Positions 1,595 to 45,081 of a stretch of DNA of 64,000 bases are shown one piece after another. The stretch's first letter is position 1; each line of letters starts with the position of its first letter. Origin of the DNA: Alphaproteobacteria bacterium (lineage in GTDB: Bacteria > Pseudomonadota > Alphaproteobacteria > Bin95); the NCBI GenBank assembly GCA_965205265.1, contig CBDBGH010000003.1, positions 3,040,001 to 3,104,000 on the forward strand, written 5' to 3'. The notes beneath the pieces were generated by a model. The model saw nothing but the letters and a program-made list of their open reading frames with translations. It was not told the origin of the DNA and searched no databases. The position numbers were made by a program, and so were the translations under genes.

Positions 1595-2068
1595 TCAGCC
1601 TTCCGACGGCCCCCACCAGGCGGCGCCCACGATTTCTGCGTCGGGATCGTCCCTCCCGGTCTCGAACGTAAGCCGGACCCGGCATCCGGACCTGCCGACG
1701 ACCAGACGCGGCCGGTTCTCCGGACCGATCAGAAGGCCCCGCTCGGGGTCATAGGAAAAGCCCGTTTCCGGTTCGACGCCGCCCCATCGCATCAGGGCCG
1801 CGAAGCCGCCTCCCGCATAGCCGTCGATCAGCAGATAGAGCGACTCTTCTGCAGGGCTGCCGTAGCCGAGCACAACGGTGCTTCCATCCGACACGCGCAC
1901 GGCGACGATCTCATCGAGTGCCACCGTGCCGCGCGACTCCGGACCCGCATACACGCTTTTGCGGGAAAGGACCGTCACTACCGGCAGAAGCGGAGTCCTG
2001 TTCCCGGAACGCCGCTCAACTTCCGCGGAGCGTTCGGGAACCGGTCGCCTACATCCTTGCCGGATCAA
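1595..2068 (-). CDS. Hypothetical protein, unassigned domain, copy 1 (no HTH)
   Basis: TTG start preceded by AGGAGA; shares PVV..., DE(I/M).AVR.SDG..(L/I)GY..EE and Y.P..GL.IGPE motifs with 2429..3160. Confidence 0.6.
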   Translation of the reverse strand: MIRQGCRRPVPERSAEVERRSGNRTPLLPVVTVLSRKSVYAGPESRGTVALDEIVAVRVSDGSTVVLGYGSPAEESLYLLIDGYAGGGFAALMRWGGVEPETGFSYDPERGLLIGPENRPRLVVGRSGCRVRLTFETGRDDPDAEIVGAAWWGPSEG

Positions 2069-2242
2069 GCGGATCTCTCCTATTCTCCTGCCGCCGAACC
2101 GCGAGGCGTGTCCTCGCGGGATGCCCGGCAGGCTGACGGAGCTGCACCGCCGACCGCCTCTTCAGGCGGGACAACGGGAGTGAGGATCATGCAGCTCCGC
2201 CAGCCATGCGGGCCAATATGGGCCGGCGAATTCCGGATGGCC

Positions 2243-2304
2243 ATAAAGTTTGCTTCAGTTCAGGAATTTATTTTTGGCGAAATATAAAGTTTTCTTCACT
2301 TTCA
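2243..2304. promoter_or_regulatory. AT-rich direct-repeat pair, candidate operator
   Basis: ATAAAGTTTGCTTCA at 2243 and ATAAAGTTTTCTTCA at 2284 (14/15 identical, 41 bp apart), upstream of copy 1. Confidence 0.45.
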
Positions 2305-2428
2305 ATTTGTGCAGTCTATTTCCCGACCCCATTCGCACGGTCATTTCCCGATCCGATCAACGGGCGCTATGTCCGCGAGGCCCGCTGCGAGACGATATGC
2401 ATGCCATAAAGCGGTGAGCACATGATGC

Positions 2429-3160
2429 TCAACCTTCTTCCTCTTGCCCTGTCACTGAGTAAACATAGGCCTGTTTAGCCGCTCTCTCATTTCTCTCCTT
2501 CAGGTATTCAAGCCGTATGCGGGTTCCGGAAGCCACGACCAAAAGCTGTGTCTGCCCCTCGGGGCCGATTCGCAGTCCCACCCCGGGCTGGTAAACGATC
2601 CTCGCTGTCTTCGCATCGACTTTGCCCCACTTCAACAGCTTGTGTATGTCGCCCCCGAGCCACCTTTCAGCCAGCCTGATGAGCGCGTATTCCTCTACTG
2701 GCGAATAACCGATGGGAATGTTCTCGCCGTCCGAAAGACGGACTGCCATGATTTCATCCATCTCTACCGAATCCAATTCTCTAGGTCCGTCGATCAGAAG
2801 GTCAACCGTAATTACAACCGGAACGCCGACATATCGGTCCTCTTCGTATTCACCTTCGTTCGCTTCTCCGGGAACGTCTTCCAGAAGATCGCTGACCTCC
2901 ACTCCCATGCCGACGGCAATGAAGCGAGCGGTTTTCGGGTCTACGTTTCCACCGTTGTTCTCGATCTTGCTGAGCGTAGCCATTGAAATCGGGTCGGGGT
3001 TGCCGTGTTTCATTCGGTCCCTGACCCATTCGATCATGGGCTTGTCATCCGAGTTCAGGACGTTGTCGATCAACTCCTTTATGAATTGCGGTTGGGTCAG
3101 GGCCATGGATTTTCGACGTTCGCGTACCATGTTCCCGCGTAGCATAAAGGACCTGGACAT
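2429..3160 (-). CDS. XRE-type HTH regulator fused to the unassigned domain (copy 2)
   Basis: RERRKSMALTQ ... ISMATLSKIENN ... IAVGMGVEVSDLL is an HTH_XRE-like pattern with an insertion; visibly lower GC than the flanks. Confidence 0.7.
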   Translation of the reverse strand: MSRSFMLRGNMVRERRKSMALTQPQFIKELIDNVLNSDDKPMIEWVRDRMKHGNPDPISMATLSKIENNGGNVDPKTARFIAVGMGVEVSDLLEDVPGEANEGEYEEDRYVGVPVVITVDLLIDGPRELDSVEMDEIMAVRLSDGENIPIGYSPVEEYALIRLAERWLGGDIHKLLKWGKVDAKTARIVYQPGVGLRIGPEGQTQLLVVASGTRIRLEYLKERNERAAKQAYVYSVTGQEEEG

Positions 3161-3410
3161 TTCTCTTCCTCCTCGAAGTGAGTGGCGTTACCGTCCTATA
3201 TGTTGACCGGCAGTCCCTATGGCGGGCGAGACAGCCGGAAGAGGCCCGACCCGCTGTCCGGCGTCACCGGCCGGAGGCAGGGCCGTTGGGTTCGCACGAG
3301 GCAGCCTCCTTCCTTCCGATGGTGCGCAGTACGACGCGGAATCGTCGTTTTACGGCACCGGTCCGGGCAAGCTACCCAAATCGCCGGTCGTGACAAAGGG
3401 ACGATTCTGG

Positions 3411-3867
3411 TCACAACTGCGTGAGTAAATTTGCAGACAATTGACGGTTTCTTGAATGCCCCGCTCGGGGATCGTACGAAAATCCCGTTTCCGGCTCGAC
3501 GCCGCCCCGGCGCATCAATGCCGCGAACCCGCCGCCCGCATAGCCGTCGATCAGGCAGATAGAACGCCTCTTCTTCAACGCCCCCGTAGCCGAGTATCGG
3601 CGCGCTCCCGTCCGACTGGCGGACGGCGACCATCTCGTCGAGCGCGACCGTGGCGCGCTCGCCGGGGCCGCCATGGATGAATTTGCAGGAAAGCACTATC
3701 GCCACCGGCAGAAGTGCAACTCCCTCCTTTGGCGCAATCGGCGCTTCTTCGGAACGCCGCAGCCGTCCCCTTGAGCTTCCGGGAAAGCGGCGCGGAGTCC
3801 GCTGCCGTAACGGGCGAGTCTCCTGCGTTCCCTCGCTGTCCGACCGCATGGCGCGCCCTTCGTGCAT
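3411..3867 (-). pseudogene. Frameshifted copy 3 of the unassigned domain
   Basis: TVALDEMVAVRQSDGSAPILGY in one frame and LIDGYAGGGFAALMRRGGVEPETGFSYDP in another; clear nucleotide similarity of 3458-3715 to 1737-1990; extra G near 3554. Confidence 0.7.
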
Positions 3868-4344
3868 TGTTTCCGGGCTGGAGGAGCGGCCCGAACAACC
3901 GGCTCATCACGTCCGGCGGTCGGGGGAGGGCCGTGCGCTCCTCCAGCTATGGACTCAATTCTATCAACAACTCCCATGCAGCGAGCAAGCTGCCATAATC
4001 CCTTATATTTCTTGGAAATTATGGTTCCCAGCAGCGATAGCCCGGACGCCTCGCGCACAATTTCCCCGGTCCGGGAGACCATTCTCCGGGTATCGGAAAA
4101 GTAAACCTACTTCCAAAAAGTTCGGACCGGAGGGAGCCTGTCGCAAAACTACCGCTGCCGGGAACGACGATTACGTCAATCGGGAATTTTTGGTGGCGCG
4201 AAACGGTTTTCCGCATGGCCATTTGTCGCGCGGGTCGAAATATGTGTCAGGGAAATACGGCCGAGCGTCCTTCCTGCGGCGGACGCAAGAGAGGTCCCGC
4301 AGGCGCTTGTGGGAGGGGCCAGACGGTGTAGGATTCCTGCCGTC

Positions 4345-5172
4345 ATGCGCAGCGATGTGGCCGAGCTTCACGCCTTCTATGACGGGCCGCTCGGGCGGGC
4401 GGCGGGGCTTGTGCTGGCTGAGCGCGTGCGACGGCGCTGGCCTTCGCTCGGCGGGATGCAGGTGCTGGGCCTCGGCTATGCGCCGCCCCTGCTCGACGGG
4501 CTCGGCGACGGGAGCGCGCATGTGCTGGCGGCCATGCCGGCGGGACAGGGCGCGCTTCGCTGGCCGGCGGAGGGCCGGTGCCGGACGGTGCTGACGGAAG
4601 AGGACGCACTGCCCTTCCCCGACCTCGCCTTCGACCGCGTGCTGCTCGCCCACGATGTCGAGACCTCGGACCATCTGGCGGGGCGGCTCCGCGAGGTCTG
4701 GCGCATCCTGGCGGCGGAGGGCCGGCTGATGGTCATCGCGCCGAGCCGCCGCGGCCTCTGGGCGCGCTTCGAACACACGCCCTTCGGCCACGGCCGGCCC
4801 TGGTCCCGCTCGCAACTGGAGCGGCTGCTGCGCGAGGCGATGTTCGAGCCGCTCGGCAGCGAGGAGGCGCTGTTCGCCCCGCCGCTCCGCCGGCTGGTGC
4901 GGCCGGGCGCGGCGGAGGCGTGGGAGCGGTTCGGGCGGCGCTGCCTGCCGGTATTCGGCGGGGTGGTAATTGCCGAGGCGGCGAAGCGGCTCGCGGGGGT
5001 CACGCCGCTTCCCGTGCGGTCGCGCCGGTCGTTGCTCCAGGGGGTGCTGAGTCCGCAGGCTACGCCGCAGCCGAGCGGCGCTCCTCGCTGCGGGCCGCCT
5101 CCCAGCCGATCAGCGCCGCCTTGCGGGCCAGCCCCCACTCGTAATTGTGGAGATAGCCGTTCGCGAGGATGA
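4345..5172 (+). CDS. Class I SAM-dependent methyltransferase (type 11)
   Basis: MRSDVAELHAFY start, VLGLGYA, LPFPDLAFDRVLLAH, TPFGHGRPWS; conserved alphaproteobacterial family. Confidence 0.85.
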   Translation: MRSDVAELHAFYDGPLGRAAGLVLAERVRRRWPSLGGMQVLGLGYAPPLLDGLGDGSAHVLAAMPAGQGALRWPAEGRCRTVLTEEDALPFPDLAFDRVLLAHDVETSDHLAGRLREVWRILAAEGRLMVIAPSRRGLWARFEHTPFGHGRPWSRSQLERLLREAMFEPLGSEEALFAPPLRRLVRPGAAEAWERFGRRCLPVFGGVVIAEAAKRLAGVTPLPVRSRRSLLQGVLSPQATPQPSGAPRCGPPPSRSAPPCGPAPTRNCGDSRSRG

Positions 5173-6338: not shown

Positions 6339-6761
6339 GTGTTCCTGCTGGACACGAACATAATATCCGAACTCCTGCGTCCGTCGCCCGACCCGGCTGT
6401 CGAAACCTGGGTCGGTGACCACCGGGCAACGGACCTGTATTTCTCGGCAATCGGCGAGGCGGAGTTGCGTTACGGCGTTGCCGTTCTGCCGGCCGGGCAG
6501 CGGCAGGCCGCGCTTGCCTCCGCCATCGAGGCAATCCTGCAAGAGGACTTTATAGACCGGGTTCTCCCGTTCGACCGCGAGGCGGCGCGGGACTATGCGG
6601 ACATAGCCGCCATGCGCCGCGCCGCCGGCCGCACCGTGCTGCCGGCCGACAGCCAGATCGCGGCGATCGCGCGTTCCCGCGGGATGGCCGTGGCGACGCG
6701 CAACGTCCGGGACTTCGAGCACATCGGCATCGAGGTCATCGACCCCTGGACGGCGGCATGA
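6339..6761 (+). CDS. vapC: VapC/FitB PIN-domain toxin
   Basis: LLDTNIISE, AELRYG, DSQIAAIA, TRNVRDF. Confidence 0.95.
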   Translation: MFLLDTNIISELLRPSPDPAVETWVGDHRATDLYFSAIGEAELRYGVAVLPAGQRQAALASAIEAILQEDFIDRVLPFDREAARDYADIAAMRRAAGRTVLPADSQIAAIARSRGMAVATRNVRDFEHIGIEVIDPWTAA

Positions 6762-6791
6762 GCGGCGCGCCGTCGAAGGGCGCGGGCTGAC

Positions 6792-7679
6792 ATGCGCCTC
6801 ACTCTGCTCGGCACCGGCACGCCGGCGCCCTCGCTGAGGCGCATGGGCTCGGGCTATCTGGTCGAGACCGGCGGCGACACCATCGTCTTCGACCACGGGC
6901 CCGGCGCGCATCACCGGCTGCTGGAGGCGGGCCGGCGCGCGGTCGATGTCACCCACTGCTTCCTCACCCACCTGCATTACGACCACTGCATGGACTATGC
7001 GCGGCTCGTGATGAACCGCTGGGACCAGGGCGCGGGCGAGCTCGGCGAGCTGCAGGTGTTCGGACCGCCGCCGACGGCGCGTATGACCGGTCTCCTGTTC
7101 TCGCCGGAGGGGGTTTACGGCCCCGATATCGAGGCGCGCACCCGCCATCGCTGCAGCCTCGACGTGTACGAAGCGCGCGGCGGTGCCGGCGAGCGCGCCC
7201 GGCCCGACCCGCAGGTGCGCGAGGTCGGCCCGGGCGATGTCGTGGAGGGGAAGGACTGGCGCGTCACGGTGGGCGAGGGCTGGCATTTCCAGCCATACCT
7301 GCAATGCCTCGCCTACCGCATCGACACGGATGCGGGCTCGATCTGCTATTCCGGCGACAGCGGCGGCGTGTGCCCCGACATTATCGAATTGGCGCGGGGC
7401 GCGGATGTGCTGATCCACATGAACCATTTCTTCACCGGCACCGAGCCGTCGCCGGAATACCGCCGCGCCTGCGGCAACCATAGGGACACGGCCGAGGTGG
7501 CGGCCGAGGCGGGCGTGGCGACCCTGGTGCTGACGCATATCACGAGCCAGATCGACACGCCCGTCATGCGCTCGCGCATCTTGCGCGAGATGGCGCCGGT
7601 TTTCGGCGGCGACATCGTCTGGGGCGAGGACCTGATGGAGGTCCCGGTCCGGCAGGCAGACATCGGGCGGATCGACTGA
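6792..7679 (+). CDS. MBL-fold metallo-hydrolase (RNase Z/AtsA-like)
   Basis: LLGTG, THLHYDH (HxHxDH), YSGDS, LVLTH. Confidence 0.88.
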   Translation: MRLTLLGTGTPAPSLRRMGSGYLVETGGDTIVFDHGPGAHHRLLEAGRRAVDVTHCFLTHLHYDHCMDYARLVMNRWDQGAGELGELQVFGPPPTARMTGLLFSPEGVYGPDIEARTRHRCSLDVYEARGGAGERARPDPQVREVGPGDVVEGKDWRVTVGEGWHFQPYLQCLAYRIDTDAGSICYSGDSGGVCPDIIELARGADVLIHMNHFFTGTEPSPEYRRACGNHRDTAEVAAEAGVATLVLTHITSQIDTPVMRSRILREMAPVFGGDIVWGEDLMEVPVRQADIGRID

Positions 7680-36346: not shown

Positions 36347-37630
36347 TCAGAACTGCCTGACGAAGGAGAGCTCGGCGCGGTTGCGGTCGTAGTCGAGGGC
36401 CTGGGCGTTGGTCTCGCGCTCCTCGCGGATGAGCGAGAGGCGCGGGCTGAAGCCGGCGAGCGTGAAGGCGCGGTTGTGCACCGAGAGCGAGAGCGTCCGG
36501 GTCTCGTCCTCGCGCGGCTCGCGGTCGATGGTGCGGTGGGCGAAGCCGCGGCCCCGGTATTCGGTGCGCTGCAGGGAGGCGCGCAGGCCCAGGGTGAAGC
36601 CGGCTGGCAGCGCCAGCGTTGCGCCCAGGCTCGCCTGCGGGCCGCTATTGCGCCAGTGCTCCAGATTGGCGCGGGCCCAGCTCCAGCCGGCATTGCCGCC
36701 GAAGCGCAGGATCGGCAGCGCGGCCCAGCTTGCCCCCAGCGAGACATCGCCCACCGGGCCGTCGAGCCAGTTGCAGTCGCGGCAGTTGCGCCGGGCGGCG
36801 CTCACCCTGCCGAACAGGCCGAGGCGCGGCGTCAGCACATGCTCGCCTTCCAGCCGGATGCCGAAGCGGTCGGTCTCGGGCATGCCGGCGGTCCATTGCC
36901 GCTCTACGGTCGCGAGCAGGCTGGCCTCGGTGCGGGCGTCGATCAGCCGGCGCGGGCCGAGATGGGCGGCGAGGAAATGCCGGTCGAAATCCCCGCCCTT
37001 GTATTCGCGGATGCTGGCATTGGCCCCGGAGCGCAGCCGGAGATTGTGGGAGAGTGGATACTGGTATTCGCCCCCGCCCCAGATCGAGACGCCGACGCCG
37101 GATTCGGGCTTCGCGGGGTCGTCGAGGGTGAAGGGCAGGCGGCCGAAGGGCGTGTCGAGGAAGACCGTGCGCTCGCCCGAGGCGGCGTTGAGGTTGCTGT
37201 CGGGGGCCAGCGCCGCGCCGAACTGCGCCTCCCAGCGCCGCCGCGCGCGCATGACGCGCAGGAAGCGGACGATGTTGACCGCCACGGCCTCGGGCGGCTT
37301 GCCGGCCAGCACCTGCTCGAAATGCCGCCTTGCCAGCGTGTCCTCCTCCTTCAGGAAGAAGGCGCGGGCGAGTTCGAGCCGCACACGCACGAGCTCCGGG
37401 CGGTCCACCAGGATGGCGCGGAAGGCGGCGATGGCCTCGTCCAGCTTCCCGTCGCGGGCCTCCCGGTCCGCGATGGCATGGGCGGCGGTCAGCGCCTCCA
37501 TGCCGGCACGGAAACGCGCTTCGGTGGCGTCCCCCTGGCCGTAGGCGAGCGCGCCCCAGCCGACCGACGCGAAAACCAGGATCGACAGGCCGAGGACGAG
37601 GACGAGGACGAGGGTAAGGAACCGTGTCAT
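36347..37630 (-). CDS. Surface lipoprotein assembly modifier (Slam; TPR plus DUF560 barrel)
   Basis: Signal peptide, RVRLELARAFF TPR, DSNLN motif, amphipathic strands, terminal Phe (FVRQF). Confidence 0.82.
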   Translation of the reverse strand: MTRFLTLVLVLVLGLSILVFASVGWGALAYGQGDATEARFRAGMEALTAAHAIADREARDGKLDEAIAAFRAILVDRPELVRVRLELARAFFLKEEDTLARRHFEQVLAGKPPEAVAVNIVRFLRVMRARRRWEAQFGAALAPDSNLNAASGERTVFLDTPFGRLPFTLDDPAKPESGVGVSIWGGGEYQYPLSHNLRLRSGANASIREYKGGDFDRHFLAAHLGPRRLIDARTEASLLATVERQWTAGMPETDRFGIRLEGEHVLTPRLGLFGRVSAARRNCRDCNWLDGPVGDVSLGASWAALPILRFGGNAGWSWARANLEHWRNSGPQASLGATLALPAGFTLGLRASLQRTEYRGRGFAHRTIDREPREDETRTLSLSVHNRAFTLAGFSPRLSLIREERETNAQALDYDRNRAELSFVRQF

Positions 37631-37702
37631 GGCGTTACCCGTCTTTCGATTTGCCCGGACAGGAGGCCGGAAAATTTCATCGGCGGCCCCAATGCGGGCG
37701 GC

Positions 37703-37797: not shown

Positions 37798-38520
37798 CTA
37801 CCGGCGGGCGCCGAACCCTCCGGCGATGTTGGCGCCGGCTCCGTCGGCAAAGAACTCGCCGGCTACTGCAAGCGGCGCGGCATTGTCCGTGTTGGCGACC
37901 GTGCCATCCGCGGCGCGAGCTTCCTTCGCATTCTCGAAGAATGAACCCGACCACCTGCCGTATACTGTCGCATCACCGAGCGTTGCGACCGTACCATTGA
38001 AGTTGGTACCAGCCGTGTTAGCTCCGGCACCTGTGGTGGCGCTCGTGAACGCCGCGGTCAAGTCAGTCAAGGTGATCTTCTTGAGTGCGACGCTCCAGCC
38101 CGCCATGGCGCCGGCAGCACCCTGGAAGTTGCTTACACTTCCGGAGATCGAGCCGACTTCCGTTGCATTACCGAACTTTGCCGTCAGCGTGGCATCGGCT
38201 GTGAAGGCTCCAGCCTCCTCGCCGACGACGTACCGCCCGGCAGCATTACCGGTATAGACAGCGTCGCCCGTCACGGCGGCACCGGTAGCATCGCCAGCCG
38301 GGGCTGCTACGTAGGCCGTGGTGCCGGTACCAATGAGATCGAAGGAATAAGTCCCCGTCGACTTGGCCGGCTCCCTCATCCACCAGCCGAAGGTCAGGTA
38401 ACTGCCGTCCTCGCGGTAGGCTGTCTGACCTGCGTTCGGAGCGAAGGTCCATGCGTCGGCAGTGGTGTACGTTCCCGCAGGCGAGACCGAAACCGAGCAC
38501 GACGTTGCACCACCAGCTGG
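37798..38520 (-). pseudogene. 5'-truncated TbpB-like surface lipoprotein (C-terminal barrel)
   Basis: Frame stays open upstream of the track start (PAGGATSCSV...YLTFGWWMREP...YTGNAAG...FTADATLTAKF...WSGSFF...GGFGA) up to the palindrome; no start codon or signal peptide. Confidence 0.75.
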
Positions 38521-38551
38521 AACATTTATGCCGAATTCGGCATAAATGTTC
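38520..38551. repeat. Perfect 32-bp palindrome at the RIT left junction
   Basis: GAACATTTATGCCGAATTCGGCATAAATGTTC is its own reverse complement. Confidence 0.95.
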
Positions 38552-38594
38552 TAATGCCGCAAAAATTTTAATGCCGCGTTTCCGGTATCAGCCC

Positions 38595-38653
38595 CTTGCT
38601 GCACTTGGGTTTCGGGTCCGGAAAACGCGGCATTAATCGGTGGCTTCACAGGG
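38595..38653. repeat. Left copy of the 59-bp perfect inverted repeat
   Basis: CTTGCTGCACTTGGG...GGCTTCACAGGG is the reverse complement of 44717-44775. Confidence 0.93.
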
Positions 38654-38729: not shown

Positions 38730-39986
38730 ATGCCATCAAAGACCAATCACGATGCTGCCGCCCGCCTTGGCGTGAGTTGGCTGACGCCGTTGCGGGCGTC
38801 GTTTCTGGCCGACCTGAAACGGCAGGGCTATGCGCCGGCGACCGTTCGGGATTACGCGACGTCGCTCAAACGGTTTCAGGAGGAGATCGAGGCCCGCTGG
38901 CTGGGTGCCAACGACCTGGACGCCGGAACCCTGAGGGATGTGGAGGACGCCATTCTGGCCTGTTCTTCTGCGGCTCCCCGGCGCCATCGACGTTTCCATC
39001 TCCGCCGATTCGTCACCCACTTGGCGGCCGAGGGGGTGATCGCCGCACCGCCGGTTCCGGAACCGCCTCCCGGTTGGCTTGAGGAACTGGGCCGGACCTA
39101 CGGTGACTGGCTGTGCCGGCACCGGGGCCTGGTACCGTCCACGATCCGGTATCGCCGGTGGTTCCTGAAGCGGTTCCTGACGTTCTGCTTCGGGGGAAAA
39201 TCCGGTGATCTCAATGGTATCGGCGCTGCCGACATCCGGGCGTTTCTTGACCTGCCGCCGGGTCGGCCCTCGACCGGACCGGGCCTTGCCAGTCGGGCAG
39301 ACAGCCTGCGCTGTCTGTTCCGGTTCCTGTTCGCCACCGGCCGGACTCACGCCGACCTGAACCTGTGCGTACCGAAGGTCGCAGCGCCGAGCATGCATGG
39401 AGCCGCCGTCGGCCATCTCTCGGCAGAAGACATTGCGGCCCTGGCCGAAGCCGTCCGTGGCGACACCGTGCGCGCACGCCGCGACCTCGCGGTGCTGCTG
39501 CTGCTGGCCCGGCTCGGGCTGCGGTCGCAGGAGGTCACGGCGATCCGGCTGGCCGACATCAACTGGCCATCCGGAACCCTTCTGGTGCGCGGCAAGGGCG
39601 ACCAGCATGCCGTCATGCCGTTGCCCGTCGATGTCGGCGAGGCAGTTGTGGACTACCTCCTGAACGGCCGGGCCGGATCGGAACAGCGTCTGTTTGTTTC
39701 GGTACGGGCGCCGTACCGGCCGTTCCGAGGTTCGAGCTTCATTCGCAGGATGCTCCAAGAGGCGTTCGCCAAGGCCGGCCTGGCGGTGCCGGAGGGCGGG
39801 GTTCGCTGCCATCTGCTGCGCCACAGTCTCGCCGCCCAGCTGCTGGACCGCGGTGCGTCGCTGGAGGAGACCGGCGACGTGCTGCGCCACCGACTGGCGC
39901 GGACCACGACAATCTATGCCCGCTACGGCATCGGAGCCCTGCGGCCGTTGGCCCGGCCCTGGCCGGCACCGGGGGAGGACGACTGA
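38730..39986 (+). CDS. Tyrosine recombinase RitA-like
   Basis: GLRSQE, RGKG, HLLRHS, LRHR, TTIYA. Confidence 0.9.
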   Translation: MPSKTNHDAAARLGVSWLTPLRASFLADLKRQGYAPATVRDYATSLKRFQEEIEARWLGANDLDAGTLRDVEDAILACSSAAPRRHRRFHLRRFVTHLAAEGVIAAPPVPEPPPGWLEELGRTYGDWLCRHRGLVPSTIRYRRWFLKRFLTFCFGGKSGDLNGIGAADIRAFLDLPPGRPSTGPGLASRADSLRCLFRFLFATGRTHADLNLCVPKVAAPSMHGAAVGHLSAEDIAALAEAVRGDTVRARRDLAVLLLLARLGLRSQEVTAIRLADINWPSGTLLVRGKGDQHAVMPLPVDVGEAVVDYLLNGRAGSEQRLFVSVRAPYRPFRGSSFIRRMLQEAFAKAGLAVPEGGVRCHLLRHSLAAQLLDRGASLEETGDVLRHRLARTTTIYARYGIGALRPLARPWPAPGEDD

Positions 39987-40707
39987 TGACCAGCTTCACG
40001 GATCGTCTCGACCAGTGCCTGGCGGAACGCCGCCGCTACGGTGGTAACTGGCTGTCCCAGGCCCGATCGGTCCGACCGTTCGCCGCCTTCGCCGACCGCC
40101 AGCGCGCGGACCGGATCACGACCGAGCTGTTCCTGCGCTGGAAGGAGGGGTACGGATCCGCCGGCCGGTCGACCTGGACGGTGCGGCTGGCGGCCGTGCG
40201 CGTCTTCGCCACCTGGCTGAAGGGCATCGACCCGCGCACGGAAGTTCCGCCCCTGGGACTGGTCCCGGGCAGCTCCCGCCGGGCGCGGCCCTACATCTTC
40301 TCCGACACCGAGATCCGCAGCATCGTGGCCGAGGCGGATCGGCTGCCTTCCTGTACGGGACTGCGCGGACTGACGTATTCCACGCTGTTCGGGTTGCTGG
40401 CCGTCACCGGCATGCGTATCGGCGAGGCCGTCGCGCTGGACGGGCGTATAGCGCGACAATCTGGGTGAGAGCCGCGCGTCAATCAGGATGAGATTCCCCG
40501 GCGGCATCGGCGAGTTGATGATTGTCGCGCGGGGCGCGGATTGCAAGCGGTTTCGGATTTTGATTGTCGCGGCGCGACAAACAGGGTTTTCGGAGAGCGT
40601 TTTGATTGTCGCGGGGGGGCCGTCGGGTCGGAGAAGAGACGGCCCGCGGAGGCGATTCCCGCGGGCTGTGAGTGTTGTGGCCGCTGGGCCGATCTGGCGG
40701 CAGCGGT

Positions 40708-43055
<2,348 letters not shown>

Positions 43056-43728
43056 CTACTCGGAAAAACGTCACCGTTCGCCCAGCCGACCGACCCCGCC
43101 AGAAGGTCCAGGAAAAATTTTTGAGGCGGCGGCCCGGAACTCCGGTCGGGCTACGCCCTCCCTCCGTTCCGGGCCGCCGCCTTCCCCCGTCTCATCCTGA
43201 TTGTCGCCAGCGTCTCAAGCTGATTGTCGCGCCGCACGGGCGGGACATCGGTCTCGATGCGGGCCTGATCCGGGTTCGCCATGCCAAGGGCGGCCGCAGC
43301 CGCACGGTACCGATCACCGGATGTACGGCCGAGCGCCTGCGGGAGTACCGCGTCAGGATGACGGCCGTCCTCGGCCGCACCCCGGACGCCTGGTTCTGCG
43401 GCAGCATGGCCGGGAACCGGATGCTCCGGGGTACCGCGCAGCAGAACTTCGCCAAGGTCGGCCGCAGGCTCGGACTGCGGCCGCCGCAGGTGAAGGGCCG
43501 CACCGTGCGCGGTCCGCACCTGCATGACCTGAGACACACCTATGCCACGAGGACGCTGCTCGACTGGTTTCGGCGGGGCCAGGACGTCGACGCCGAGATG
43601 TACAAGCTCAGCACCGTACTCGGCCACACGTGTCCCGGCGGCACCTACTGGTACATCGAGGCCGTACCGGAACTGCTGGCCCTGGCCAGCGAACGCTCGG
43701 GAACCGCACCCGACCGGAGGGCCGGATC

Positions 43729-44724
43729 ATGAGCGGGCACCCATTGGCCCCGCATCTGGCAGACTTCTTCCATCATCGCCTGAACGGGCAACTCAACGCC
43801 AGCGAACATACGGTGAAGAGCTACCGGGACGCCATGAAGCTACTGCTGACCTTCGCTCAGAAGCAGCTGGGCCGCGAGCCGATGCGGCTGGAAGTCGAGG
43901 ACATCGATGCCGATCTCGTCTGCCGGTTTCTGGACCATCTCGAGACGGACCGGAAGAACAGCATCGCCAGCCGAAACATCCGGTTGGCCGCCATCCGCTC
44001 CTTTTTCACGCATGTCTCCCGCTGCGAGCCAGCCCTGCTCGATCACTGTCGGAAGGTGGGCTTGCTGCCCGGCAAGCGGCAGCGCAAGCCGACGGTCCAG
44101 CATCTCGACGAGGCCGAGATCCAGGCCCTGCTCGATGCCCCGAACCTCGATACCCGCACGGGCCGGCGGGACCGGGCGATCCTGCTGCTGCTGGTACAGA
44201 CCGGACTGCGGGTCGGTGAGCTGATCAATCTTGACCTCGGCAACATCAGCCTCCAGGGTCAGGCCAGTGTCTTCTGCCTCGGCAAGGGACGCAGGGAACG
44301 CTCGACCCCGCTCCGGCAGGATACCGTGCAGGTGCTCAGCGAGTGGATGGAGGAACGGGCCGCCGGCGCCGGCGACCCGCTGTTCGTGAGCAACCGGAAT
44401 CGGCGACTCAGCCCCGACAGTGTCCAGCAACTGGTGCGCCGGCATGTCGAACGGGCGGCCCGACAGTGCCCGTCACTATCGGCCAGGCGGATCACTCCGC
44501 ACAGCTTGCGACACACCGCAGCCATGCAGCTTCTGCGTCATGGCCGGTCAATCACCGTTATCGCCTTGTGGTTGGGACACGAATCGACCATGACGACGAT
44601 GAAATACCTGCATGCGGATCAGAGGATCAAGCAGGAGGCCATGGAACTGACGCGGCCAGCGGACGTCCCACCGGGGTGCTACCAGCCAACTGACGAGGTG
44701 ATGGCCATGCTTAACGCCCTGTGA
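43729..44724 (+). CDS. Tyrosine recombinase RitC-like
   Basis: SEHTVKSYRD, TGLRVGE, GKGRRER, PHSLRHTAAM, WLGHE, KYLHAD. Confidence 0.92.
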   Translation: MSGHPLAPHLADFFHHRLNGQLNASEHTVKSYRDAMKLLLTFAQKQLGREPMRLEVEDIDADLVCRFLDHLETDRKNSIASRNIRLAAIRSFFTHVSRCEPALLDHCRKVGLLPGKRQRKPTVQHLDEAEIQALLDAPNLDTRTGRRDRAILLLLVQTGLRVGELINLDLGNISLQGQASVFCLGKGRRERSTPLRQDTVQVLSEWMEERAAGAGDPLFVSNRNRRLSPDSVQQLVRRHVERAARQCPSLSARRITPHSLRHTAAMQLLRHGRSITVIALWLGHESTMTTMKYLHADQRIKQEAMELTRPADVPPGCYQPTDEVMAMLNAL

Positions 44725-44775
44725 AGCCACCGATTAATGCCGCGTTTTCCGGACCCGAAACCCAAGTGCAGCAAG
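44717..44775. repeat. Right copy of the 59-bp inverted repeat, overlapping the ritC stop codon
   Basis: CCCTGTGAAGCC...CCCAAGTGCAGCAAG. Confidence 0.93.
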
Positions 44776-44887
44776 AGGGCGACACGCGGACGCCAAAGCC
44801 CCTGAGCTTGCTGTCGCGAACCTCGCGGACGGACTTGCGGGACCTGAGCGTCCAGACTCGGGTCTCGGTGAGATTGGTTCTCGGCAA
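44776..44887 (-). pseudogene. N-terminal arm-binding stump of a genomic-island tyrosine integrase
   Basis: GGGAGA RBS, TTG start, LPRTNLTETRVWTLRSRKSVREVRDSKLRGFGVRVSPS, cut exactly at the RIT inverted repeat. Confidence 0.7.
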
Positions 44888-45081
44888 CGGATTTCTCCCG
44901 GCTCCGGTTGCAGCCAGGGAACAAAGGAATTGCACCCTACTTCCCCAGTTGCAGATTTTCGGGAGAAAAAACGATTCTATATCAGATAGTTAGCACCCAC
45001 CGGTGTGCATATTGGTGTTCGGTATTGTCTCAGTCTGAAATCGGGAAAGTCGGGCGAGGAGCGACCCCGCCCGACATGGTG

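Follow-up and report, generated by a model that had tools for sequence, protein, structure and literature searches.

The perfect 32-bp palindrome at 38520-38551 of the window (the whole 64,000-nucleotide stretch of DNA that was analysed) is probably, at about 0.75, a joint module belonging to a recombinase-in-trio (RIT) element rather than a copy of host sequence, and a repeat end plus this module would together constitute the recombination site of the element. The module would be composed of a 6-mer, a half-site, 4 nt, a second half-site, and a second 6-mer. The kind of element is already known, and the analysis provides a concrete, testable mechanism for it. The features of the site and of the element are given below in window coordinates (a second copy in the same genome is termed copy 2).

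37801-38519, minus strand: host flank, the 3' part of the interrupted gene; a stop-free frame with no Pfam match that ends at the module.
38520-38525, no strand: outer 6-mer of the putative joint module, GAACAT; the same 6-mer lies in copy 2 between CGGCATTG and the palindrome.
38526-38545, no strand: 20-bp palindrome TTATGCCG-AATT-CGGCATAA, two half-sites of the repeat-terminal kind.
38546-38551, no strand: inner 6-mer ATGTTC, the putative spacer of the core CGGCATAA-ATGTTC-TAATGCCG.
38552-38653, plus strand: left inverted repeat, with half-sites TAATGCCG at 38552-38559 and 38569-38576 and an inverted CGGCATTA at 38628-38635.
38730-39986, plus strand: ritA, 418 aa; Pfam Phage_integrase plus a SAM-like N-terminal domain.
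39986-40446, plus strand: 5' part of ritB, interrupted by the insertion sequence; collinear with the intact copy-2 ritB up to 40446.
40444-43236 (ends approximate), minus strand: IS21-family insertion with istA (41544-43043) and istB (40708-41547).
43226-43732 (start approximate), plus strand: 3' part of ritB, by collinearity with copy 2.
43729-44724, plus strand: ritC, 331 aa; Pfam Phage_integrase, 3.3e-37.
44717-44783, minus strand: only the inner portion of the right inverted repeat, as judged against the intact right end in copy 2.

The window element is a RIT element, and no feature sets it outside that family. In the available text of the sources, RIT elements are described as three adjacent, overlapping tyrosine-recombinase genes (ritA-ritB-ritC) with terminal inverted repeats, which occur as identical copies within a genome and insert into the genes of other mobile elements (PMC2864759, PMC3414803, PMC8138268, PMC10214605); the insertions reported for CH34 lie in radC and in an IS66 tnpA (PMC2864759). 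Target specificity, the empty site, and movement are entered as 'not tested' for RIT elements in Table 1 of a 2023 paper (PMC10214605; also PMC3414803), to the extent that these texts were available; the abbreviation 'RIT' in PMC12306157 refers to terminators and has a different meaning. The genes of the window element follow the order A-B-C, with products of 418, 316 (copy 2), and 331 aa (for RIT elements, ~420, ~315, and ~330 aa are expected) that all match Phage_integrase, including the intact 316-aa RitB of copy 2, and with the window ritB split by the IS21-family insertion. The open reading frames overlap by 1 nt between ritA and ritB (TGATG, 39984-39988) and by 4 nt between ritB and ritC (ATGA, 43729-43732). 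Terminal inverted repeats are present, complete in copy 2 and, in the window, with a right repeat that ends at 44783. An earlier note on this DNA had recognized the site as a RIT end, and the adjoining ritA, IS21-broken ritB, and ritC, with their Phage_integrase matches, bear this out. The assignment of RitA is based on its size, the order of the genes, and the syntenic RitC-like genes present at 59 of 80 loci; RitA has 6017 homologues at E <= 1e-30, the nearest 75% identical and none annotated as 'RitA'.

The IS21-family insertion has repeat arms at 40451-40493 and 43190-43232, and its istB matches IstB_IS21 (Pfam, 5e-65). Each RIT copy holds one such insertion (40444-43236 in the window and C3:4687693-4690488 in copy 2), the two being 90.8% identical, in opposite orientation, and at different positions: within ritB in the window, and between the left repeat and ritA in copy 2. 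A RIT free of the copy-2 insertion is contained in run X12 (a skip of 1684-4486, with 8 shared letters).

At the right end of the window copy, the outer ~65 bp of the repeat are gone, together with the far 6-mer and the second half of the target. The right repeat is cut off after 44783, next to unrelated DNA, so the far junction of this copy has been lost; because the far end is deleted, its own target 6-mer is unreadable. The window copy is probably now immobile. The DNA adjoining the cut repeat (44784-44960, minus strand) resembles the N-terminal ~50 codons of a P4-type integrase on reading of its translation, this stretch having no Pfam match, and paralogues of it elsewhere in the genome are 73-77% identical. 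A few bases (GCCC.CT) are shared at the junction. On the other side of the element, the interrupted host gene, a 239-codon remnant without a Pfam match, sits upstream of a Slam-type surface-lipoprotein assembly gene (36350-37633; SlipAM match, 3.4e-22).

The arrangement described in the earlier note, GAACAT / TTATGCCG-AATT-CGGCATAA / ATGTTC / TAATGCCG-N9-TAATGCCG, was re-read letter for letter at 38520-38577, and the perfect 32-bp palindrome that it reported is present at 38520-38551. The components start at 38520 (GAACAT), 38526 (TTATGCCG), 38534 (AATT), 38538 (CGGCATAA), 38546 (ATGTTC), and 38552 and, 9 nt on, 38569 (TAATGCCG). An additional inverted half-site that was missing from the note's list, CGGCATTA at 38628-38635, pairs with 38569-38585. 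An imperfect palindrome inside the left repeat (38569-38635; TAATGCCGCGTTTCCGG ... CCGGAAAACGCGGCATTA) places this third, inverted half-site ~50 bp inward of the end. The motif TWATGCCG occurs nine times in the 64-kb window, against 2.16 expected (sd 1.57), a number reached in 0 of 100 shuffles; five of the nine occurrences fall within 38526-38635. When 38514-38557 is folded as a single strand, it gives a 14-bp stem closed by a 4-nt loop (-14.8 kcal/mol, z = -7.8), and none of 200 shuffles was equally stable. Genome-wide, the 20-bp palindrome was not found beyond the two RIT copies, and only two half-site-6-half-site cores occur in the whole genome, one in the module of each copy. Judged from the sequence, inverted arms around a 6-bp overlap, as in a core site, are present both in CGGCATAA-ATGTTC-TAATGCCG and in CGGCATTG-GAACAT-TTATGCCG. 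The core-site layout that the note had proposed for CGGCATAA-6-TAATGCCG holds up, in that this unit behaves as a core: among otherwise identical copies in two other genomes, the 6-mers alone vary.

The origin of the outer GAACAT is decided by copy 2 (C3:4687568-4693877), in which all three genes are open. In their bodies, the two copies agree at 100% over 1784 bp and at 99.7% over 1566 bp, and their ritA genes are 100% identical. The left end of copy 2 reads host ...GTGCCTT / ATGTTC-TAATGCCG..., and its right end reads ...CGGCATTG-GAACAT-TTATGCCGAATTCGGCATAA-ATGTTC / CAATAATG... host, so that ATGTTC borders the copy on both sides. Here GAACAT is internal, between the right inverted repeat and the palindrome, and the left end of the window copy (38518-38653, 136 nt) matches the reversed right end of copy 2 at 98.5%. 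Since GAACAT lies inside the element in copy 2, it is part of a module that travels with the element. The claim that GAACAT was host junction sequence mirrored into the element fails on this point, the identical module being found at the opposite end of copy 2.

From these two arrangements a mechanism can be proposed. In an excised circle, the module would bridge the right and left inverted repeats, generating two oppositely oriented tyrosine-recombinase cores; in each of them, a 6-bp crossover sequence would separate a repeat-terminal half-site (CGGCATTR) from a module half-site (TTATGCCG). The spacer of one of these cores would be the outer GAACAT, which in the circle would stand between the half-site of the right repeat and the arm of the palindrome. 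Either core could recombine with a target that carries a similar 6-mer, and the insertion product would run host, module, repeat ... repeat, target 6-mer, host. The module would thus end up beside one repeat only, which is the ritA-side repeat in the window copy and the ritC-side repeat in copy 2. On this view, the last 6 bp of the element would be GAACAT at 38520, which could equally be called the shared crossover sequence. That it is the reverse complement of ATGTTC would follow from the two cores fitting target 6-mers of one kind and pairing with each other in the palindromic joint. Strand exchange would presumably take place at the boundary between host and 6-mer, for example by exchange of one strand pair followed by replication, and particular Rit proteins would presumably bind particular half-sites. 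Mobility of the RIT as a unit is indicated indirectly, by the sequences of two copies at separate sites and of circular contigs of relatives.

The same layout recurs in relatives. A search with the left-end DNA gave no match in 60 related genomes and none in 72,556 plasmids, and an initial protein-based scan of genome contigs returned no relative; an alignment query was required. With an alignment of RitA homologues as the query, 80 loci in other genomes were recovered, with RitA 34-62% identical; a class-wide search found relatives in 5 of 400 other genomes (E <= 1e-40; best identity 36%). A script scored sites at which a perfect 8+4+8 palindrome stands 6 nt away from a repeat with a partner at the opposite end. 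This scored 41 of 82 sources (the 80 related loci and the two own copies), giving 44 rows; the reasons for the other 41 sources going unscored include short contigs, insertions, and imperfect palindromes, and a looser pattern found palindromes in several of them. The order in all 44 scored rows is host, 6-mer, 20-bp palindrome, 6-mer, repeat ... repeat, 6-mer, host. The palindrome module is present at one end in 40 of the 80 related loci; it adjoins ritA in 25 of the scored rows and ritC in the other 19. The outer 6-mers of the 44 rows comprise 31 distinct sequences. The outer 6-mer is identical to the far 6-mer in 21 of 42 rows and is the reverse complement of the inner 6-mer in 22 of 44; mean mismatches out of 6 are 1.0 for outer vs. 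far (42 rows) and 0.93 for outer vs. inner, as against 4.5 at random. The palindrome arms co-vary with the repeat half-sites of each family (TAATGGAG with TAATGGAA, and TTATGTTG with TTATGTGG).

There are exceptions to this layout: locus L047 has no module, and L075 has a module at each end. Host arms of the same kind flank L075 on both sides, and in L158 two different RITs meet head to head, with a single module separating their left repeats. The three arrangements suggest secondary rearrangement, either by inversions between copies or by insertion into a resident core.

The empty targets of the element indicate what the 6-mer contributes. The target of copy 2 is a Transposase_31 (YhgA/Rpn-like) gene, the upstream and downstream pieces of which match profile positions 2-75 and 79-185, respectively; with the element and the palindrome taken out, a single open frame of 400-402 codons results. 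Two intact paralogues of this target have exactly 6 nt, GAGCAC (Glu-His), between the halves. One contig of run X12, from a homologue, has 36 letters in place of L127 1556-7895 (= 12 + 6 + 18), and one contig of run X14 has an orthologous left flank (4 differences in 29) joined to G+TGTTC-CAATAATG, giving the empty site GCCTT-GTGTTC-CAATAATG, in which five of six bases match the ATGTTC of the element. Because these inferred empty targets hold exactly one similar 6-mer, the 6-mer is best regarded as a shared crossover sequence, neither purely element nor purely host. The empty orthologue has GTGTTC whereas both flanks of copy 2 have ATGTTC; a simple crossover therefore fits only if the allele of this strain was already ATGTTC. 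Among 16 genomes of the same genus, no orthologue was found that would provide the empty allele of either host gene. The earlier note had envisaged that GAACAT/ATGTTC, if simply element sequence, would be constant in all copies and absent from the empty target allele; the two copies do share the 6-mer, yet the target is not without a counterpart, since X14 has GTGTTC there and the paralogues have 6 nt.

The same empty sites bear on whether the palindrome was there before the element, as a sequence of host or foreign origin for which RITs merely have a preference (for instance a REP-like repeat, a terminator, or what is left of another element). Palindromes are common targets of some mobile elements, and the module of L158 between two different RIT ends would fit such a preference. 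Against this, the copy-2 target frame is restored by removing the element plus the palindrome, paralogues and orthologues hold only 6 nt at the site, the arms co-vary with the repeat half-sites of each family, and the genome is without another copy of the palindrome. A pre-existing palindrome is accordingly the least credible of the explanations considered, and we regard it as highly improbable compared with a module that belongs to the RIT.

The targets of relatives were read as well. RITs of an Acidobacteria-type clade (L086-L093, L106, L064, L072, L075, L076, and L054) interrupt the codons H-D-L / R-H-T-F-A of other tyrosine-recombinase genes, of which many are ritB-like; the module is invariably on the RHTFA side, and the target 6-mers vary only at Leu/Arg wobble or synonymous positions. 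Other relatives (L034, L060, L081-L085, L077, L079, L039, and L105) lie, on reading of translations, inside mobile-element or nuclease genes. L034 and L060 share one insertion codon in an IS21-type istA, and the target in Kibdelosporangium is a serine recombinase. All six Kibdelosporangium copies of that target are occupied, among them L125, which came to light when an unoccupied paralogue was sought and none was found. The other targets read as ISL3- and IS256-like transposases, an HNH-like gene, and a helicase-like gene.

Multicopy families allow the fate of the 6-mers at insertion to be followed. There are no differences over 3368 bp among five compared copies in Kibdelosporangium or over 3407 bp among seven in a Bryobacterales MAG, and 0-2 differences over 3509 bp among three in a Solirubrobacterales MAG, yet the 6-mers differ between copies; in the former two families, with 100% identical bodies, the 6-mers are the sole variable positions. 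In all eight informative insertions (L087, L091, L092, L093, L103, L104, L105, and L044), the 6-mer on the palindrome side is the family constant and the far 6-mer varies with the target, the two differing by 1-4 nt; L082, L089, and L090 are ambiguous and can be read either way. As read from these sequences, integration leaves the module intact, and the target 6-mer stays at the far end despite 1-4 mismatches. The module 6-mers themselves come in variants: GAAGCT (three copies) and GAGGCC (three, counting L125) in Kibdelosporangium, both of which are Glu-Ala codons of the target, and TCGCCA or GCGCCA in the Bryobacterales MAG. With no other difference in 3.4 kb, these variants point to occasional capture of a target allele, and on sequence comparison the module 6-mers do seem to be swapped for target alleles from time to time.

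This evidence weighs on the central proposal of the earlier note, according to which the 6 bp of each new host site are copied in inverted form into the spacer through a hairpin or inversion intermediate, with the palindrome arms rebuilt from the target. Some observations are of the kind that templating would produce: among 100% identical copies the module 6-mers differ and the variants equal target alleles (Kibdelosporangium GAAGCT/GAGGCC; Bryobacterales TCGCCA/GCGCCA), and L034 and L060, inserted at the same codon of homologous IS21-type istA genes, each have, to the left and right of the palindrome, a match to the 6-mer of their respective target (GACCTC vs. GACAAA). Yet the two copies in this genome share one module at two unrelated targets, a near-identical 6-mer is already present in the empty site, and asymmetric modules persist in use (two mismatches in L049 and two in Kibdelosporangium variant A). 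The co-variation between inner 6-mer and new host 6-mer that the note had put forward as a check did not appear: with target 6-mers differing by 1-4 nt, the module 6-mers were unaltered in eight of eight informative insertions, and hence nothing was templated at integration. A target-templated spacer is also contradicted by the constancy of the 6-mer in both own copies. Because an ordinary crossover within the 6-bp overlap explains the swaps, a templating step by hairpin or inversion is unneeded, and we consider it very unlikely.

The joint that the module would form on excision was sought in metagenome contigs with the pattern half-site-10-ATGCCG-N4-CGGCAT-10-half-site, which gave 50 stretches. 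Five contigs (L159, L167, L173, L174, and L180) carry ritC, the joint, and ritA in one direction. Two of them have exact terminal overlaps of the whole contig (99 nt in L167 and 127 nt in L174) and close to circles of 3428 and 3401 bp, respectively, each with three ORFs of the expected sizes and with the gene order ritC, right repeat, 6-mer, palindrome, 6-mer, left repeat, ritA. Their joint has the form half-site-N9-half-site-6-palindrome-6-half-site-N9-half-site and is the predicted circle joint with two inverted core sites; a tandem array would assemble identically, so L167 and L174 show the joint and not the topology. Many of the 50 matches lie at contig ends; these, and likewise L171 and L175 with their full symmetry, were discounted because they may be artefacts of fold-back assembly. 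In L175, ritC-like genes point away from the joint, and hence it is not a RIT joint. The joint predicted for the window/copy-2 element was not found among public contigs in the parts that these cover (6341-7608 of X12, for example, being uncovered).

A different joint was observed in runs X10 and X14 (L127 7828/1569), in which the inner right-repeat half-site CGGCATTA, one G, and the TGTTC-TAATGCCG of the left repeat are joined. The resulting CGGCATTA-GTGTTC-TAATGCCG is core-like and is without the outer half-site and the palindrome; the proposed mechanism does not account for this joint. Its depth in X10 is 78.8, near the single-copy level, and it is absent from the assembly of this genome.

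The joint also raises the question of the form in which the element moves, because the same sites could act in a folded single strand or a hairpin-ended molecule in place of a double-stranded circle. The right repeat would then pair with the left, the 6-mers would pair with each other, and the palindrome would form the tip, leaving one folded core for a single-strand exchange similar to that of CTX attP(+) or attC. The joint is self-complementary throughout, the 32-bp module alone folding at -14.8 kcal/mol, and exchange of one strand followed by replication predicts the bias in all eight informative insertions, in which the 6-mer of the element stays at the module and that of the target at the far end despite heterology. 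In the available part of Nielsen et al. (2017; PMC5737581), RIT DNA is reported to have been protected from exonuclease while circle joints went undetected, and hairpin intermediates were proposed. On the other hand, a double-stranded circle would account just as well for the circular contigs L167 and L174, and modules with 2-4 mismatched 6-mer positions occur. A folded substrate is thus a doubtful alternative to the double-stranded circle, though a more serious one than templating of the spacer.

Taken together, RIT elements would move by way of a circle or folded strand bridged by a self-complementary 32-bp module, with a 6-bp crossover that tolerates up to 4 target mismatches, is exchanged one-sidedly at integration, and is occasionally swapped for the allele of the target. 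Insertion would be orientation-specific and aimed at conserved codons in recombinase or transposase genes that belong to other mobile elements (HDL|RHTFA of tyrosine recombinases, a serine-recombinase helix, IS21, IS256, and ISL3 transposases, and Rpn/YhgA). For this combined scheme we hold the chances to be evenly balanced. RIT elements are widespread, and the palindrome becomes a defined part of them rather than a curiosity. The model predicts the exact circle joint, two core sites, and target motifs, as well as which 6-mer remains with the element and which with the target. As the joint is a long palindrome, joints would be scarce in short-read data. If true, this would be the first mechanistic model for a family whose movement was never reproduced.

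The element shares with known RITs, as far as the available descriptions go, the overlapping ritABC genes, the terminal inverted repeats, the occurrence of identical copies, and insertion into mobile-element genes; in the parts of the literature consulted, no RIT description of a one-sided 32-bp module, a 6-bp crossover, a circle joint, or a mechanism was found, and Ricker 2013 might hold one. In Tn916 and CTnDOT, the 6-bp crossover sequence need not match the target and is carried from site to site. The available text describes the same for the crossover 6-mer of Tn554 and SE elements (PMC10214605). The tolerance within the 6-bp crossover in these four kinds of element would correspond to that of the RIT described here; as far as their descriptions extend, they are without long inverted repeats or a palindromic joint piece, whereas the module 6-mers of RITs usually stay with the element. 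CTX phage attP(+), which is used by XerCD, and integron attC are folded single-strand recombination sites. By analogy, an imperfect palindrome in the RIT could provide both core arms, with one strand pair exchanged, heterology tolerated, and the product resolved by replication; in contrast to these systems, RITs encode their own three recombinases, and a folded-strand substrate is a candidate only. loxP, FRT, and dif have inverted recombinase-binding arms around a 6-8-bp overlap. The RIT core likewise has inverted arms and a short overlap, but its arms come from separate parts, the repeat end and the module, and one palindrome serves two cores.
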